The notes beneath the pieces were generated by a model. That model saw nothing but the letters and a program-made list of their open reading frames with translations. It ran no database searches and was not told where the DNA came from. Shown piece after piece: positions 7,821 through 14,906 of a stretch of 64,000 bases of DNA. This DNA is from Acidobacteriota bacterium (GTDB lineage: Bacteria; Acidobacteriota; UBA6911; RPQK01; JAJDTT01): the NCBI GenBank assembly GCA_965218775.1, contig CBDCLS010000004.1, positions 1,146,152 to 1,210,151 of the forward strand. The letters run 5' to 3'. Within the stretch, counting starts at the first letter, position 1, and every line of letters begins with the position of its first letter. The translations under genes were made by a program, and so were the position numbers.

Positions 7821-9543
7821 TTAGTTCGGGATGCAGACCTTGTTTCTGTTGTCCCACCGGCAAGTCGGCTCGGCGTTACAGGCCCCCTTGTTGGTGATGC
7901 TCGAACAGTCCGCTGGTGGTTGGCAGGCCGGGTCCGACGCGCAGTCGGCATCGGCACAATCGAAAAAACCATCACAGTCGTTGTCTACGCTGTCAGTACA
8001 CACTTCCGCTGCCGGCACGCAAGGAGACGAACAGTCTGCGGCACAATTGAACTCGTCCTCTCTCACGTGCCCGTCCAAGCAGCTGCTTTCGTCACAGAAG
8101 TCGTCGCCGCAACTGTAGTTGGTGACCAAATAGGGACTGGGGTGATCATTGTAGTCGTAACTCCCGATCCCCAATTGTCCGTAGGCGTTATACCCACAAG
8201 ATCGGATGGTTCCGTCGAGCTTGAGAAGGTAGGTCGACCTCCCGCCTGCCACGACGTCCGCGACCAAGAACGAACCTGCTTGCACAGGAGCGTGCGAATC
8301 GCCCACGCTTCCGCTGCAATGCTCGCCCCATCCATTGCGGCCCCAGCACCACGCTGTGCTATCGCTTAGAAGGACGCAGTTGTGGTGATTGCCCACCGAC
8401 AGAAGCGTCGGTTCCGCCAGAAATCCCACCTCGAGGGGAACCGAGGACGGGCATGGTGACCCTTTGCCCTTTCCGCAGGTTCCGGTGTCGTTGCCCAGTT
8501 GGCTATTTTCATTCGAGCCCCAGCAGAAGACCGTGTTTGTGCCCGGCTTACAGCAGAAGTCCGTGTTGCCCTCCGGGTCACAGGGGAGTGTGTCCTCTAC
8601 GGCACAGGTGAGCGCGCAGACGTGGTCAGTCCCCACTTCGATGTCAATGGCCGCTTGTCCTGCGGGAAGGTTCACTTGGACGGGTACATGAGAATCGTCC
8701 GTGGTTCCGTCCCCGCCCCGCCCCAGCTGCCCAAATTCATTCGAACCCCAGCACCAAAGGGATCCATCGGTCTTGCGCGCGCAGGTTTGTCCGTTGCCAC
8801 CGTCGCTATTCGGGCCGGGGCCGGCCTCATAACTTTGGTAGCCATTGTCAATTCCGACCACATCGTGCATTTTCCCATCCGCTTCACTCAAGTCCACGAC
8901 TTGCGTGGGCCTCGAACGATTCGTTGTGGTGTTGTCGCCGACCTGACCATGGTAATTCGCAACCCCAGCACCAAGCAGTCCCATCGGGTTTAACAGCGCA
9001 GCTCGCCGTCGCCCCCCCAAGGTCCGTCGTTCCAACGAACGCATTCCCATCCAGGTCAGTCGTCACTTCGACGGCCACCGATCGATCCGTGTTGGTTCCG
9101 TCACCGAGCTCACCGTTGCCATTACTCCCCCAACACCAGACCGTTCCGTCGGTCTTTCTTGCGCATGAGTGGTAGTAACCGGAAAACATGGTGAGGACTC
9201 CCGTGAGGTCGTCTCCGTCTCCGTTCACGACCGACGACGCAAGTAGGGCGTCCTCATTGGGAAGGTCATTCCCCACCTGACCCGAATTGTCCAGTCCCCA
9301 ACACTCGGCGTCTCCACACAGGGTGACGACGCACATGTGTCCCCACGACATCGTGACGCCGAGCCCCCCTTCCGAAGTGAGAGGTTGCGATGTGCTACTC
9401 ACCTCCGGCGTGTTGTTCTGCCTGACCGTGTCGTCTGATTGAACGCCGTTGGCCAGGGCAGGGATGACGATAAGAAGCCAGACAAACAGGTGGATTGAGC
9501 GACGGAAACGGTTCTCAATTCTCAACATTCTAGTCTTCTCCAT
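7821..9543 (-). CDS. secreted RCC1-repeat beta-propeller protein with Cys-rich C-terminus (frameshift near 8961)
   Basis: Repeated SCARKTDGTVWCWGSNxxGxLG units in ORFs 8884-9591 and 7821-9050; C-terminal EVCTDSVDNDCDGFFDCAD repeat. Confidence 0.85.
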
Positions 9544-9662
9544 GGTTCGACGCTCTCTTCCGAGGTGAAGGCGAGAGAATGGACCAGGCATGCCCTAGAC
9601 CGTCCACGGCCCTTAACCTCGGCCTTCAGTGAAGAGGGAGCTTCTCTTGACCCGTCTAGCAA

Positions 9663-12644
9663 TCACTCGGTAGAGCTCAGCTCAGGCAGGAAGTTCTCCA
9701 TCGCCCAGACTTCACCCTTCTGCGCTTTGTTAATAGTCCTGAAAACGATCCGTCTCCCGTCGGGATGAACCCGCACGTCGTGCAGGAATTCCATTGGTGC
9801 CAGATTGACCTGGTCAGGTTTCCCCCCCTCAGCAGAAACTCGCCACAGCTCGGTCAGGAGCTGGGGGTCAGGGTCGCGACGACGTCTCGTGAAGAGCAGC
9901 TGGCTTCCGTCAGGCGTCCACACTAGATCGTGCGGGTAAGTTTGCGGAGGGTCGTTTAACCTGCACAGCTCACGAGTTTCTCCGCCGGCCACCGGCATGA
10001 GCTTGAGCACGGGACCTGGGTTCTCCGGTCCAGAAAAAGCCAGCCACCGGCCATCCGGCGAGATGGAGAATTTCCACCGGCCGACGCGAACGAGCTCTTT
10101 TTCTCGGCCCGTCTTGAGGTCTCGCATCATCACGGCGTCGACTCCTCCCGTAGATACCAAGTAGAAGAGGGCCTTCCCGTCGGGAGACCACTCGGGGGAG
10201 TATGACATCCTCCCCGGCTTACTCTTCACGACCAGAGTCATCTTGCCTGTTTGAGCGTCGACTTGGTAAAGACCCGAGCGGTTCTTGCCATCTTCCGCAA
10301 GGACCAGAAAGGAGCGTCCGTCCGGGGACCAGCGGCCGGACAAACCCACCTGAACTTTGAGCCGAAGTGAGAGTGTCCGCTCCTCACCCGTCTCGACGGA
10401 GCGGATAAAGAGGGCCGCAGGCCTCGGCCCAAAGGCGCCCCGCTGCGAGAAGTAGGCCAGGTATTGGCCATCGGCCGACCAGTCAAGTGGCACGTTGAAG
10501 CCCATCCGCTGGTCAAGCTTTGTCGGCTCCGCCAGCACTTTGCCTGTTGTCGGGTCGATCATGGCGGTGTAAATATCCGAGATGCCCCCGCTGGAATGGA
10601 TGTAGTAATAGGCGCCGTTGCGGGTAAAGCCCACTGGGTAGATCTCTCCGATTCCCAGCTTAACCATCTCAGGAGCACTCTGAGACTTCCCATCGGCCAC
10701 CTCGATCGCCCAGGCATCCCAGGTGCCTCGGCGGTCGCTCGCAAAGAGAATCCACCTCCCATCCGGTGACCAGCCGAGCACGTAGTCATCAGCTGGATGC
10801 TTCACCAAGGGAATTTCGCGGCTCCCGTCGCTTGCGAGTAGGAAGAGGTCCCGCTGGGGAGACTCTTCCTTGGGTGGGACGGCGTAGACGATGTAGCGCC
10901 CGTCGGGCGAAAAGTTCATCTTACCGGGGTAACGCCAATCCAGCGATTTGAGGACCCGCAGGGAACCATCCGAAACGGAGACCAGCCCGATCCGCCTAGT
11001 TCCACCCCCGGCAAATACCCCCAGAATGTCCTTGCCATCCGGAGACCACGCGGCAGGCCTGATGGAGGTCACTTCGCTATTCCGATACAGGACCCGGGGC
11101 TGGGATTCTTCGAGCCCGACGATGCGCAGGTCAAAGTTGTCTTCGTTGCGCCAGGCGTAAGCCACCTGCTTACTGTCGGGAGAGAAGATAGAAACCCCGG
11201 CGCGCTCTGCGGATCCATCAGCCTTTTGCGTCAGACGACGCTCTTTCCCGGTGTCGAGTTCGCGGACTGCCAAGTCGCCTGTCTCCCGGTAAGACAGGTA
11301 GTGACCATCAGGGGACAGCGCACCATAGAACAATCCTCGGTAGCCCTGAAGCTGTCGGAGAACCATGCCGGTGGTAGGCTTGTCTTTCGCATACTCAGCA
11401 GACGAAGGGCCCGGCTCCTTTGCTGCGGCCGGGGTGGGGGCAGGCGCCTCGGTTGATCGGATCGCTGCCGTCGAGCCTGAGGTGAAGCCAATGGTAGCCA
11501 GCGGCAGAACCACCAAGCAGACCGTGAGCAGGATCAGTCCTTGGGCACGGCGGCTCAGCGCTCGGTGCGAGCGGCGGGAGTCCAGGATGGCCAGCAGCCG
11601 GCCCTCGATTTGTGAATGCCGCGCCATGGCTACCGCAACCTGCCAGCCCCACCTGGGTAACTGAATGGACCGAGCAATCTCCAGGAGGTGAGTGGAATAG
11701 TCTGAGGGTTTTGTCCCCGCCGCCAAGACTTGATCGTCGCAGGCCTGCTCCCGTTCGATCCGCAACTGCCGGCAGGCGAGCCAAACCAGGGGATTGAACC
11801 AATACAGGGCGCGAGCGAGCTGGGCGAGCATTTGGCTCACATAATCCAGGCGTTTGATGTGGGCCAACTCGTGTAACAAGACCACCCGGCGACACGGGTC
11901 CGACCACTCCTCACGAGCCGCCGGTAGCAGGATCACCGGCCGCCACACTCCCCAACTCATCGGAGAGATGGAGCGGTCGCTTGCCAACAGGGTGACCCGA
12001 CGTCCGAGGCCCAGTTCCGCCGCCAGCTGCGCCACCAAGGCCCTCCACGACGGCTCACGGATCCGTTTCGCTCGCCGCTTGATCCACCGAACCTGCAGCA
12101 AGCCGATCCCTCGCGAAACGAGGAGAAACAGTGCCCCAGCTCCCCAAATCAGCAGACCCCACGTAGACCACGCGAGCCGCCCAGCAGGGGGTTGAGCAGA
12201 GGCTGGCTGTTCCCGCTTGGAATGAATCGCTCCAGTCATCGGCACCGGCAACAGAGCGGAACCTTTCGGTGTCGCCGGCGTTTGCGCGACGCTCCCGAGT
12301 TGTCCGCCAGCAGGTGAAGGCTCCGAGAGATCCGCAGCAACGAACTCCTGAGCCCTCTCTCCTTCCAACCCAGGAACTCCAAGGGGTGAAATACTCGGTA
12401 GAAGGCCTACGTTCCATCCTGGCAACAACCCGGAGAAGACGGGCAACGCCACTAGGGCCACCAGCGCTCCGGCCCAGATGGCATGACGAAAGGCGGCGGA
12501 AACACGCCGCAAGGCAACACTCATCAGGCCTGCGAGGGCCAAGATCACGACCCCTTTGATGGAGCACTCCGCCAAAACAGCCAGCCAGTTGAGCGACTGG
12601 GAAGACGATCCTATCGGGAGGTCAAATGGGAAGATCATGGTCAA
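9663..12644 (-). CDS. BlaR1-like M56 metallopeptidase fused to TolB-like PD40 repeats
   Basis: HELAHIKRLD, WFNPLVW, EREQACDD; many WSPDG repeats. Confidence 0.92.
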   Translation of the reverse strand: MTMIFPFDLPIGSSSQSLNWLAVLAECSIKGVVILALAGLMSVALRRVSAAFRHAIWAGALVALVALPVFSGLLPGWNVGLLPSISPLGVPGLEGERAQEFVAADLSEPSPAGGQLGSVAQTPATPKGSALLPVPMTGAIHSKREQPASAQPPAGRLAWSTWGLLIWGAGALFLLVSRGIGLLQVRWIKRRAKRIREPSWRALVAQLAAELGLGRRVTLLASDRSISPMSWGVWRPVILLPAAREEWSDPCRRVVLLHELAHIKRLDYVSQMLAQLARALYWFNPLVWLACRQLRIEREQACDDQVLAAGTKPSDYSTHLLEIARSIQLPRWGWQVAVAMARHSQIEGRLLAILDSRRSHRALSRRAQGLILLTVCLVVLPLATIGFTSGSTAAIRSTEAPAPTPAAAKEPGPSSAEYAKDKPTTGMVLRQLQGYRGLFYGALSPDGHYLSYRETGDLAVRELDTGKERRLTQKADGSAERAGVSIFSPDSKQVAYAWRNEDNFDLRIVGLEESQPRVLYRNSEVTSIRPAAWSPDGKDILGVFAGGGTRRIGLVSVSDGSLRVLKSLDWRYPGKMNFSPDGRYIVYAVPPKEESPQRDLFLLASDGSREIPLVKHPADDYVLGWSPDGRWILFASDRRGTWDAWAIEVADGKSQSAPEMVKLGIGEIYPVGFTRNGAYYYIHSSGGISDIYTAMIDPTTGKVLAEPTKLDQRMGFNVPLDWSADGQYLAYFSQRGAFGPRPAALFIRSVETGEERTLSLRLKVQVGLSGRWSPDGRSFLVLAEDGKNRSGLYQVDAQTGKMTLVVKSKPGRMSYSPEWSPDGKALFYLVSTGGVDAVMMRDLKTGREKELVRVGRWKFSISPDGRWLAFSGPENPGPVLKLMPVAGGETRELCRLNDPPQTYPHDLVWTPDGSQLLFTRRRRDPDPQLLTELWRVSAEGGKPDQVNLAPMEFLHDVRVHPDGRRIVFRTINKAQKGEVWAMENFLPELSSTE

Positions 12645-13030
12645 CGGCCCTCCTTTTTCGCCTGGTCGATGAGCCTCGACATCCGCTCCAGATCCTCCTG
12701 CGAGAGGCTCAGGGGCGACCGGTCGAGTAAGGCATTGACGACCTGTGCGGCCGAGCCGTCAAAGAAGTTTTGCACCACCTGATCCAGAACCGCCTGGCGA
12801 GCCTTTTCGCGGCTGATCTTAGGCTTGTAGACGTACCGGGGCCCCCGGTAGCGGTGCTTCACATGTCCTTTCTCTCCCAGGACACTCAAGAGTGCTCGAA
12901 CCGTGGAATAGCTGGGTGGACTGGGCAGGTTGGCGCTAATCTCGCGGGCGGTGGCCTCGCCCAGCCGGTAGATGACGTCCATGATCTGGCGTTCGCGTCG
13001 ACTCAGATTCAGGTTCCATGATTTGGCCAT
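12641..13030 (-). CDS. BlaI/MecI/CopY-family repressor
   Basis: LSRRERQIMDVIY, YSTVRALL, FFDGS; overlaps the M56 start. Confidence 0.93.
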   Translation of the reverse strand: MAKSWNLNLSRRERQIMDVIYRLGEATAREISANLPSPPSYSTVRALLSVLGEKGHVKHRYRGPRYVYKPKISREKARQAVLDQVVQNFFDGSAAQVVNALLDRSPLSLSQEDLERMSRLIDQAKKEGR

Positions 13031-13065
13031 AGTTGATCTTCCTCCGTCGGCAGTGGCTGCTCTCC

Positions 13066-13118
13066 TGCTACAAAACACACAGTATGCTATAAATACGGCA
13101 GTACTTCGGTCAAGTCAA
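13066..13118 (-). promoter_or_regulatory. putative BlaI operator (two tandem 19-bp imperfect repeats) and promoter
   Basis: TGCTACAAAACACACAGTA / TGCTATAAATACGGCAGTA in tandem; TTGACT/TTGACC on the minus strand just upstream. Confidence 0.5.
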
Positions 13119-13201
13119 CCCCTAATTCCTGATTTGGGACTGGAAATCTCCCTCTCTCCTCCTGTGGACAACCTACCCTTGACGCGTCAGCCCTTTAACG
13201 T

Positions 13202-13221
13202 AGAATAAAGGATGTTATTCT
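13202..13221. promoter_or_regulatory. tyrosine-recombinase-type core site (AGAATAA-N6-TTATTCT)
   Basis: 7-bp inverted arms with a 6-bp spacer, dif-like ATAA/TTAT inner ends, upstream of an integrase remnant. Confidence 0.6.
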
Positions 13222-13254
13222 GCATTATTAAGGACACCAAGGGATTCCTCATCC

Positions 13255-13380
13255 ATGGCCTCAAATCTCGTTCCGGCTTCTAAGTCTGGTCTGGCCAAGG
13301 CGGCCCGCTTTGCCTACCAGGAGTTTTTCTATGGTGAGATCCGAAATCCTCACACGCGTGTGGCTTACCATCGCCTAACT
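13255..13380 (+). pseudogene. tyrosine integrase N-terminal remnant
   Basis: AARFAYQEFFYGEIRNPHTRVAY resembles the N-terminus of plasmid/transposon XerD-like resolvases; no catalytic domain follows. Confidence 0.6.
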
Positions 13381-13440
13381 GTTGCCGGGGCGCTGCCAGG
13401 CGCGTGCCTGGCAGCGTGCTACTGGGTATTCGGGTGGGAA

Positions 13441-13473
13441 TAAAAAAAGCCCCGAAGACTCAGTCTCCGGGGC
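13441..13473 (-). terminator. intrinsic terminator
   Basis: Minus strand GCCCCGGAGACTGAGTCTTCGGGGC followed by T7. Confidence 0.85.
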
Positions 13474-13763
13474 ATGAGAAGCCTACATGGGTGGCTTATC
13501 TATCCCGGAGGACGGCATACTGCGGACATATCCCACTGGTGTTGAGCCAATGACCCAGCGTACCGCAGACTGGTCCCTGTAGGTCCAGTTGTGCGTTCAT
13601 GTAACCTACTGAGTTGTTTCCGCATTTGCTGCCTTACCACCTTTCTCCAAATTTGGATCCAAGAAGTCCGAGCTGTGCCCATCTATGAGGATGGACTCTT
13701 GGGGCTTGGATCGCCTGCCAAACCGAAGCCTTAAGCGAGCTCAGGTCTCAGCAGGAAGGAGAC
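13442..13763 (-). ncRNA. candidate structured small transcript (~320 nt), possibly dual-function
   Basis: Weak promoter TCGACA-N16-CAAAAT, several helices and its own terminator; family not recognised. Confidence 0.45.
13500..13625 (-). CDS. 41-aa small ORF MRKQLS...WDMSAVCRPPG
   Basis: SD-like AAAGGTGGT 10 nt before ATG; stop 27 nt before the terminator hairpin. Confidence 0.5.
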   Translation of the reverse strand: MRKQLSRLHERTTGPTGTSLRYAGSLAQHQWDMSAVCRPPG

Positions 13764-13862
13764 ATTTTGCAGAGAAAAGTTTCAGTGTCGAGCTTTCTTT
13801 TCGAATTTCTCCGAGTGGAGTCGCTTCGCAGGGGAGAATTGTGACGCCATGAGGACTTTGGG

Positions 13863-14906
13863 TTACGACTCGACCCGCAGAACAATCTTTCCGAACTGGC
13901 TCTGGTTCTCGAGATGTTTCAGTGCATCCCCGGCTTGACTCAAAGGAAAGACTCTATCGATCACCGGTCTGAGCTTCCCCCTGGAGAGCAGGTCAATGAT
14001 CTCTCGATATTCCTGGCGACTGCTCATGCTCGAGCCTAGAATCTCAATCTGTTTCCAGAAAATAAGTCTTAGTTCCGTCTGGGGATTGGCACCCGTGGTA
14101 GCGCCGCAGGTCACGATTCTGCCTCCCTTACGAACCATTTTGAGACTCTGGAGCCAGGTAGCCGAACCAGAGCCTTCCACCACAACGTCGACACCCCGTT
14201 TCCCAGTGAACTTGTACACCTCCTTGGCCACGTCGGCGGTGGTGTAATTGAGGCAGTGATCGGCACCGAGTTTCCTGGCTTGTTCAAGCTTGGTCTCACT
14301 GGAAGAGCTGACGAAGGTGCGAGCACCCGACAGGACTGCGATTTGTAGGGCCGCCGAGGCTACGCCGCCCCCAATTCCGTGAATGAAGACGTCTTCCCCA
14401 GCCCGCAGCCGGGCACGGGTCTTCAGCATTCTCCAGGCGGTTTGGGTTACCAGGGAAAAGGCGGCAGCTTCTTCGAAAGAGACGCCGCTGGGAATCTTCT
14501 CAAAGTTGGCCTCTGGAGCCTGAAAGTACTGTGCGAAGGTCCCTCCAGTATGCTCGCCCATCAGGCCAAATCTTATGCAGAGGCTGTGCTCGCCCTGAAC
14601 ACAGAACTCGCACCGGCCACAAGAGAGACCCGGATTCAGCATCACCTGGTCTCCAGGCTCCAGACGGCTGACACCTTGGCCCACTTCCTCGACGATTCCT
14701 GCCCCATCCGAGCCCATCACGTGCGGCATCTTCAGGTGCACTCCTGGAATGCCTTCCAGAACAAAGAGGTCGAGACGGTTCAGGGCCACGGCTCTGGCTC
14801 GAACCAGGACCTGGCCTGGGTCGACCTGGGGACGATCGATTTCCTGGAAGTGAAGCTCATCCAGGGTCCCATGCCGGTGGATGACGGCGGCGTACATTTT
14901 TCCCAT
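13863..14906 (-). CDS. zinc-binding alcohol dehydrogenase (MDR family)
   Basis: GSDGAG, CGRCEFC...C, GIGGGVA. Confidence 0.92.
   Translation of the reverse strand: MGKMYAAVIHRHGTLDELHFQEIDRPQVDPGQVLVRARAVALNRLDLFVLEGIPGVHLKMPHVMGSDGAGIVEEVGQGVSRLEPGDQVMLNPGLSCGRCEFCVQGEHSLCIRFGLMGEHTGGTFAQYFQAPEANFEKIPSGVSFEEAAAFSLVTQTAWRMLKTRARLRAGEDVFIHGIGGGVASAALQIAVLSGARTFVSSSSETKLEQARKLGADHCLNYTTADVAKEVYKFTGKRGVDVVVEGSGSATWLQSLKMVRKGGRIVTCGATTGANPQTELRLIFWKQIEILGSSMSSRQEYREIIDLLSRGKLRPVIDRVFPLSQAGDALKHLENQSQFGKIVLRVES

Follow-up and report, generated by a model that had tools for sequence, protein, structure and literature searches.

A regulatory leader element was identified on the minus strand at 13442-13791 of a 64,000-nucleotide stretch of an Acidobacteriota genome (GCA_965218775.1, contig CBDCLS010000004.1, positions 1,146,152 to 1,210,151; this whole stretch is hereafter the window, and the genome G000). 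Sequence comparison denotes a real, conserved and narrowly distributed element, probably a translated regulatory leader, which appears to be organized as a single transcription unit with a sigma-70-like promoter, an RNA of ~316 nt carrying a 41-codon leader open reading frame (ORF), and an intrinsic terminator. The alternative pairings of this RNA, together with the fixed distance from stop codon to terminator, give the four-segment layout of a ribosome-mediated attenuator; and our tentative reading, to which we assign a probability of about 0.4, is an attenuator of this kind with an arrest-type leader peptide. In relatives, the element is a 5' module, with a conserved leader, a tRNA-like gene and an SPFH gene directly downstream of it; hence, the stand-alone transcript proposed by a previous sequence-only reading of this DNA was not borne out, and the stand-alone look in G000 is explained by loss of the downstream unit.

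Conserved parts of the element and their pairings

Eight copies of the element were found in 7 of 76 genomes of the order (a count that includes G016, flagged as unpublished, among the negatives), with a single copy in G000. BLAST-type matches were obtained in G001 (94% identity), G005 (90%) and G002 (79% and 77%), the latter genome holding three copies altogether, of which the third is cut by a contig end, while G030, from another family, matched in the 3' part only. The copies of G000, G001, G005, G002 (G002a and G002b) and G030 constitute group A. Group B comprises G025 and G034 (third family), which were matched at the terminator only and present upstream of it a near-consensus promoter, a Shine-Dalgarno (SD) motif and a 43-44-codon ORF. 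Across families, CGUCCUCCGGGAUA and the terminator are nucleotide-invariant, and both the ORF and the pairing of the SD/AUG region are conserved in the homologues collected. The parts recognized at the locus of G000 are the following.

13786-13791, minus strand: -35-like hexamer TCGACA (consensus scan)
13764-13769, minus strand: -10-like hexamer CAAAAT (consensus scan), with a 16-nt spacer to the -35
13713-13755, minus strand: 5' untranslated region (UTR) hairpin P1, CCUGCUGAGACC...GGUUUGGCAGG (consensus fold of four genus sequences; several pairs broken in G002a)
13656-13712, minus strand: 5' UTR hairpin P2, GAUCCAAG (13712-13705) with CUUGGAUC (13663-13656), enclosing GUCCAUC/GAUGGGC (single-sequence and consensus folds)
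13630-13647, minus strand: SD region and 5' fold-back strands (GAGAA, GGUGGU, GGCA)
13500-13625, minus strand: 41-codon ORF with ATG at 13625 and TAG stop (13500-13502), peptide MRKQLSRLHERTTGPTGTSLRYAGSLAQHQWDMSAVCRPPG
13514-13526, minus strand: inner fold-back 3' strands; UCCGCA pairs with the AUG region 13619-13624, and UGCC with GGCA 13630-13633
13504-13510, minus strand: candidate antiterminator strand CUCCGGG (codons Pro39-Pro40-Gly41), complementary to CCCGGAG 13465-13471 in the terminator 5' arm (nascent-RNA folds)
13476-13495, minus strand: outer fold-back 3' UTR strands GCCACC and UUCUC (genus-specific; not kept in G002b or G030)
13442-13473, minus strand: intrinsic terminator, hairpin 13449-13473 plus U7 (11 bp, 8 G-C, -19.8 kcal/mol)
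13373-13374, no strand: end of collinearity with G001 and G005 (alignment); loose ends of metagenome contigs at the same spot

Frame 0 is stop-free in 8/8 copies, with 0-3 stops in each of the other five frames; after shuffling, the probability of finding no in-frame stop is 0.15-0.23 per copy, and the product over five lineages is 3e-4 (joint probability about 3e-4 to 1e-3). The ORF bodies are essentially unrelated between lineages (22-27% ungapped identity; 55% for G000 vs G002b), and the ORF has 41 codons in the six group A copies and 44 in group B (43 from a second ATG). Moreover, an SD-like motif is located 6-9 nt ahead of the start codon in every copy (in G000, AAGG at 6 nt and GGUGG at 11 nt upstream of the ATG). 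The start is ATG in seven copies and TTG in one, the stop is TAG in six, TAA in one and TGA in one, and the distance from stop to T-run end is 58 nt in the five group A copies with a terminator, and 57 or 59 nt in the others. A longer reading of 60 aa is possible from an in-frame ATG at 13682; since G002a has one extra base between 13682 and the conserved ATG, only the 41-codon frame is common to the copies.

The SD and the 41-aa ORF ending in RPPG, described from the sequence alone, are therefore conserved, and conservation of the peptide is concentrated at its C-terminus. Group A ends in Q-[W/Y/F]-D-x-x-AVCRPPG-stop and group B in TVFRDPPG-stop (G034) or LSVFMNPLA-stop (G025), with RPPG-stop in six copies and RDPPG-stop in one (G034). 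In this region, Gln30 is encoded by CAG or CAA, codon 31 is TGG, TAT or TTC, aromatic throughout, Ala35 is GCA or GCG, Cys37 is TGC or TGT, and GTA, GTG, GTC and GTT are all used for Val36. In group A codons 4-29, substitutions are evenly distributed over the three codon positions (10, 15 and 15 changes for G000 vs G002b). Judged by this even spread, most of the peptide is unconstrained, and protein-level constraint is limited to the last dozen residues, Q-aromatic-D-x-x-A-V-C-R-P-P-G-stop. The peptide is hydrophilic and basic, as its earlier description as not hydrophobic had anticipated (grand average of hydropathicity, GRAVY, -0.82; isoelectric point, pI, 10.8; maximum 15-residue hydropathy 0.08), and no signal or membrane segment was recognized in it from these hydropathy values. 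No stretch of regulatory codons for a single sensed amino acid occurs in the ORF, the Pro-Pro pair being the sole repeat. Taken together, the comparison makes translation of the ORF likely, with the reservation that the "synonymous" changes fit RNA helices as well and that the R-P-P-G codons never vary.

Regarding the RNA, the four nested pairings previously drawn from the sequence (GAGAA 13643-47 with UUCUC 13476-80; GGUGGU 13636-41 with GCCACC 13490-95; GGCA with UGCC; and UGCGGA 13619-24 with UCCGCA 13521-26) are exactly those of the RNAalifold consensus of G000, G001, G005 and G002a. The outer two are present only in these four close genus copies, and absent from G002b and G030. The fold-back predicted to bury SD and AUG is kept more widely, since the SD/AUG region pairs with the last ORF codons in the minimum-energy folds of 8/8 copies, by means of different sequences: UGCGGA/UCCGCA and GGCA/UGCC in the genus; UUGCGGA/UCCGCGG, ACGACA/UGUCGU and GGAG/CUCC in G030, where GGCA/UGCC is replaced by GACA/UGUC; and UGAAGACGG/CCGUCUUCA in group B. 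The duplex formed by the SD/AUG region and the last 11 codons has -18.5 to -31.0 kcal/mol and beats mononucleotide shuffles in each of the eight copies (p = 0.0005-0.05). The whole 350-nt stretch is only modestly more stable than its shuffles (z = -2.17; 4/100 shuffles equal).

Furthermore, the last codons are complementary to the terminator 5' arm, a feature that the previous reading had missed and by which the fold-back picture becomes an attenuator layout. This second duplex is built from different sequences in the two groups, CUCCGGG:CCCGGAG in group A (-15.7 kcal/mol in G000) and CCGUCUUC:GAAGACGG in group B, and ranges from -13.2 to -20.2 kcal/mol (p <0.0005 to 0.16 vs shuffles). In nascent-RNA folds ending at the terminator 5' arm, pairing of this arm with the last codons is predicted in 6/8 copies when unconstrained, and in 8/8 when SD/AUG is blocked, as by an initiating ribosome.

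The weak promoter proposed from the sequence was recovered at its place, with 9/12 matches to the consensus, a predicted transcript start at ~13757 and a predicted RNA length of 315-316 nt. Its position is kept in relatives, where it comes nearer to consensus (TCGACA-16-TAGAAT in G001, 10/12; TTGACA-16-TAGAAT in G002a; TTGACA-16-TATACT in G030, 11/12); the -10 of G000 (CAAAAT) is weaker than the TAGAAT of G001, G005 and G002a, and the -35 TTGACA also occurs in G003. This last genome retains the promoter and ~20 nt from the start of the transcript, ahead of a different cargo, and G004 has neither. The cargo of G003, downstream of the alcohol dehydrogenase gene (L144), includes an ORF resembling a lipoprotein precursor. 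Between the two 5' hairpins previously suggested, the one at 13705-13712/13656-13663 (P2) was found in single-sequence and consensus folds, with one compensatory pair in its inner stem (C-G to G-C, in G002a; consensus fold of the four genus sequences), and is restricted to the genus, being absent from G002b and G030; the GUCUC/GAGAC hairpin was discarded, as it coincides in part with the predicted start site and does not appear in the consensus fold. The terminator is as strong as had been suggested, with 11 pairs, 8 of them G-C, followed by T7, and its sequence is identical in G001, G005 and G002b, with a single loop change in G030.

The element also proved uncharacterised in the Rfam, Pfam and NCBIfam searches. 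In the whole window, Rfam gave no match at the gathering score, for 6S, tmRNA or any other family (no separate search was aimed at RNase P or SRP); a permissive scan of 13100-14100 gave seven weak matches, mostly to the terminator, the best with 17.6 bits vs a cut-off of 41, and the loci of seven relatives gave 19 matches, all of them tRNA. ARAGORN called no gene in the window, and the 6S (59 bits) and tmRNA (173.9 bits) of G000 sit on other contigs. The peptide matched no NCBIfam or Pfam family, a word-indexed protein search with it gave no candidate, and a profile search of 1.84 billion proteins returned only P0001, a 517-aa repeat protein (MPAVCRPP repeated) judged spurious as a homologue. 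Exact-pattern scans retrieved five stretches from the genome contig collection, four known copies plus L010, which lies inside coding-like sequence, and one stretch, a chance match, from the metagenome contig collection; viral contigs had no match for the ORF-end pattern. A 17-nt terminator pattern matched 4 of 401 genomes of the phylum (G000, G025, G034 and G088), and the match in G088 was an ordinary gene-end terminator.

The downstream unit in relatives and its loss from this genome

In every relative whose contig continues, a conserved leader lies 95-220 nt past the terminator on the same strand, formed by a covarying hairpin, then ACCGU-GA-ACGGU, and then UUUCAA. It is followed by the tRNA-like gene, an SPFH/Band_7 gene and, in the genus, a tRNA array. 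The leader and the tRNA-like gene were found after the terminator in G001, G005, G002 (contigs C546 and C495), G030, G025 and G034, at the following places.

L002:1932-2222 (G001): leader and tRNA-like gene; also in L003, L009, L012, L006, L020 and L078
L068:2262-3631 (G001), L069 (G005) and L012:2471-3435 (G002): tRNA arrays of 10-13 genes, just past the SPFH gene

The tRNA-like gene scores 57-66 bits with the Rfam tRNA model, which was the sole family at gathering score in L002 1925-2900, where a permissive scan adds two sub-threshold, chance-level matches. Acceptor stems are mismatched in 5/5 copies called by ARAGORN, one of the copies is without U33, and two copies were not called. The body of the gene is conserved and the anticodon differs among close relatives (CAU, AAG in the copy without U33, UGA, UGG and UUG). 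Matching of ORF codons to the anticodon of the downstream gene was considered and set aside: it was suggestive only for AUA/CAU in the genus, with a small sample, and no pattern was seen in G030, G025 or G034. A query of the G034 element plus its tRNA retrieved mostly tRNA.

Within the genus, the small ORF, the tRNA-like gene, the SPFH gene and the array are present or absent as a block. In the order, the leader pattern was found only in 6 genomes that carry the small ORF, besides three matches in genus g15 that lie inside a 562-591-aa ORF; in viral contigs, none of its 59 matches had the hairpin and T-arm. The SPFH orthologue is likewise co-distributed with the element, plus G036, whose contig is cut 202 nt ahead of the gene, and G022, where a 47%-identical SPFH gene occurs with a degenerate tRNA-like element and no recognisable small ORF. 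No sigma-70-like site was detected between terminator and downstream unit in the three loci scanned (a consensus scan, which does not cover other promoter types), and the promoter of the small ORF is the sole sigma-70-like site on the strand in two of them. A second tRNA-like/SPFH unit was observed in G005 (L080, contig C1), with its leader cut by an upstream ORF resembling a transposase end.

The unit was not found in G000, whose collinearity with G001 and G005 stops at 13373, the same base at which metagenome contigs of relatives diverge; neither the leader, the tRNA-like gene nor the SPFH orthologue was detected anywhere in this genome. From this comparison, the regulated unit is lost from G000 and the element orphaned. 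Past 13373, G000 carries other DNA, including a blaI-like gene (12641-13078) and a blaR1/M56-PD40 gene (9663-12644) paired on the strand of the element, towards which any read-through would now head. On the minus strand, the element lies between a gene for a zinc-type alcohol dehydrogenase (13863-14906; Pfam ADH_N and ADH_zinc_N), on the side of its stop codon, and the blaI-like repressor gene (Pfam Penicillinase_R). For G000, the element would represent an orphaned regulatory module and not a new class of stable RNA.

On the plus strand, a 62-aa ORF (13255-13443) overlaps the region just past the terminator and has a TTGACG-16-TAGAAT site upstream (13179-13206, plus strand); the idea that it is an integrase remnant was dropped, as it has no Pfam match and no paralogue in G000. 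Elsewhere in the window, two minus-strand ORFs at 7821-9591 (409 and 235 aa) have repeated WCWG...G.LG motifs, which we take to recall RCC1-type repeats.

Proposed mechanism and rival explanations

In the attenuator proposed here, four segments would compete for pairing: segment 1 would be the SD/AUG region, segment 2 the last ORF codons, and segments 3 and 4 the 5' and 3' arms of the terminator, so that 1:2 would lock the ribosome-binding site, 2:3 would act as antiterminator and 3:4 as terminator. The R-P-P-G-stop sequence would be a RAPP-like or Pro-Pro-Gly end of the type that slows or arrests ribosomes. We infer that a ribosome lingering at this end would cover segment 2, whereupon 3:4 would form and transcription stop; with the ribosome lagging or absent as segment 3 emerges, 2:3 would form and transcription would read through into the downstream leader, the tRNA-like gene, the SPFH gene and, in the genus, the tRNA array. 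The resemblance to RAPP-like and PPG arrest sequences, already raised by the sequence-only reading, fits published work on these motifs, where RxPP (x = G, A, S, P) induces arrest, RDPP allows it and is strongly under-represented, and RAPP-like motifs are placed towards the C-terminal ends of small proteins encoded ahead of diverse genes (PMC12992588). In addition, polyproline stalling enhances intrinsic termination (PMC5021804).

Several observations weigh against this attenuator. At the level of the peptide, the changes in codons 4-29 show no preference for any codon position, the R-P-P-G codons are nucleotide-invariant in 6/6 group A copies, without any synonymous change, and the "synonymous" changes beside them are compatible with RNA helices; consequently, RNA-level constraint alone could account for much of the C-terminal conservation. 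Moreover, G025 ends in MNPLA, without Pro-Pro, and RPPG is not RxPP, corresponding to RAPG with Ala changed to Pro, a position at which ApcA tolerated no substitution (PMC12992588). At the level of the RNA, the 2:3 duplex is weaker than the hairpin of the terminator (-19.8 to -22.4 kcal/mol), no covariation is seen in 2:3 within group A, and 1:2 and 2:3 do not overlap in G000-type copies, so there would be no competition between them. Furthermore, the downstream unit may have a promoter invisible to the consensus scan, and the element remains intact in G000, where it has no target.

Expression data are also to be read with care. A 312-nt contig of a G002b-like variant from one metatranscriptome run (depth 14.6) ends at the T-run, which is a weak hint of a transcript end; RNA-library contigs cover only 13441-13528, in the variant of a relative, and the end of the alcohol dehydrogenase gene. 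This contig is the sole RNA-library signal, and DNA contigs also break at the terminator, further points to be set against the attenuator. In the metagenome of run X7, depth at the terminator hairpin (13444-13467) was 238 vs 33 in the flanks (~7x), so that an identical terminator must be common to several copies or organisms in that sample, and this repetition explains the breaks.

Among the rival explanations, a stand-alone small-protein gene or dual-function small RNA, with the 41-residue basic peptide or the RNA acting in trans, seems doubtful to us. In such a case, the fold-back would only lower translation or stabilise the RNA, the terminator would be the gene end, and the tRNA-like/SPFH unit would be transcribed separately. 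The promoter and strong terminator of its own, the persistence of the intact element in G000 after loss of the unit, the length of the 312-nt RNA-library contig, close to the predicted 315-316 nt, and the multiple copies per genome or community with identical terminator (three in G002; the depth excess in X7) all agree with it. Such a gene is difficult to reconcile with a peptide that is mostly free to vary, which would be unusual for a folded or binding protein, and with the strict co-orientation and adjacency of element and downstream unit at every inspectable locus; the complementarity between last codons and terminator arm, found in both groups, would have no role in it, and two large protein searches gave no homologous protein.

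A non-coding regulatory RNA, either a ribosome-free cis leader or a small RNA acting in trans, whose open frame is a by-product of structural constraints, is in our view unlikely. It would account for the nucleotide invariance across families noted above, for nonsynonymous and synonymous rates (dN and dS) that are about equal over most of the frame, for the dense alternative pairings, and for the fact that all variable sites near the ORF 3' end fit helices, including the change from GGCA/UGCC to GACA/UGUC. However, the frame is open in all copies despite unrelated ORF bodies (the joint probability given above), the start, SD spacing and stop position are kept while their letters change (ATG/TTG; TAG/TAA/TGA), codon 31 remains aromatic through two-base changes, no Rfam family is matched, and the CCUCC motif is absent from group B. 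Far less probable still is a type I toxin-antitoxin-like locus, in which a toxic small peptide would be encoded by an mRNA held inactive through a 5'-3' long-distance interaction: the sequestration of SD and AUG, as in hok, tisB and aapA1 mRNAs, and the multi-copy state in some genomes would suit it, whereas the hydrophilic, basic character of the peptide, its unconstrained body and the lack of a promoter-like site on the plus strand within 13442-13791 (consensus scan only) speak against it.

Returning to the attenuator, a more specific form of it, namely an undescribed self-locking mRNA whose R-P-P-G-stop leader reads translation speed or state and gates a tRNA-like/SPFH/tRNA-array module, appears improbable; if true, it would constitute a translation-state feedback on reserve tRNA supply. 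In this context, position 16 of the ORF is a rare AUA codon in copies preceding a CAU tRNA-like gene, a hint that the RNA under its control could itself be what the leader senses. Few leader peptides couple nascent-chain arrest to an intrinsic terminator, and the literature searched had no such leader in Acidobacteriota and none linked to tRNA-like or SPFH genes. Should the model hold, RAPP-like and polyproline arrest motifs would also serve non-secretory leaders and the control of RNA genes, in a compact switch of ~230 nt from SD to terminator.

Comparison with known systems

Type I toxin mRNAs (hok, tisB, aapA1) share with the element a 3' part that pairs with the SD/start region and shuts translation, and differ from it in that the element encodes a peptide without hydrophobic character and with an unconstrained body, and the consensus scan gave no sign of an antisense RNA. 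The likeness is broader with ribosome-mediated attenuators such as trpL, hisL and pyrL, or the mgtP/mgtL proline-codon leaders. As in these systems, a leader ORF with SD (8/8 copies) is followed soon after its stop by an intrinsic terminator (57-59 nt, in the seven copies with a complete terminator), and the predicted alternative hairpin uses the terminator 5' arm and overlaps the ORF end, in a 1:2 / 2:3 / 3:4 arrangement. Unlike them, the element has no run of codons for a single amino acid, it is the peptide end and not the codons that is conserved, its segment 1 is the ribosome-binding site, hence self-locking, and its target includes an RNA gene.

The leader of the tna operon offers a further parallel. 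In TnaC, the ribosome stalls at or beside the stop codon and thereby controls transcription termination, and both peptides are short, with a conserved aromatic and an acidic residue about ten positions ahead of an end that contains proline. This end is Pro-stop in TnaC, which depends on tryptophan and works through Rho-dependent termination, whereas the element ends in Pro-Pro-Gly-stop and its terminator is intrinsic.

Finally, RAPP-like arrest peptides (ApdA, ApdP, ApcA, SecM class) resemble the element in having a small ORF with a C-terminal core of Arg and Pro-Pro or Pro-Gly, a loosely conserved region beside the core, a freely varying N-terminus, and a position directly upstream of same-strand genes, which was found in G001, G005, G002 (two loci), G030, G025 and G034, and not in G000, where the unit is lost. 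Regarding the core, which reads RAPP, RGPP, RAPG or RAGP in these peptides, with RSPP, RDPP and RPPP as permissive variants, G034 has RDPP, the six group A copies have RPPG and not RxPP, and G025 has MNPLA. Unlike these peptides, that of the element has neither signal peptide nor membrane segment, Gly-stop or stop comes immediately after its motif, the genes downstream are a tRNA-like RNA and an SPFH protein and not Sec/YidC components, and the predicted read-out is an intrinsic terminator instead of the unmasking of a downstream SD. Since the hydrophobic segment that marks the monitoring substrates of the known class and, in group A, the exact RxPP core are lacking, we do not file the element within the RAPP family, and file it as one that would work like an arrest-peptide attenuator.

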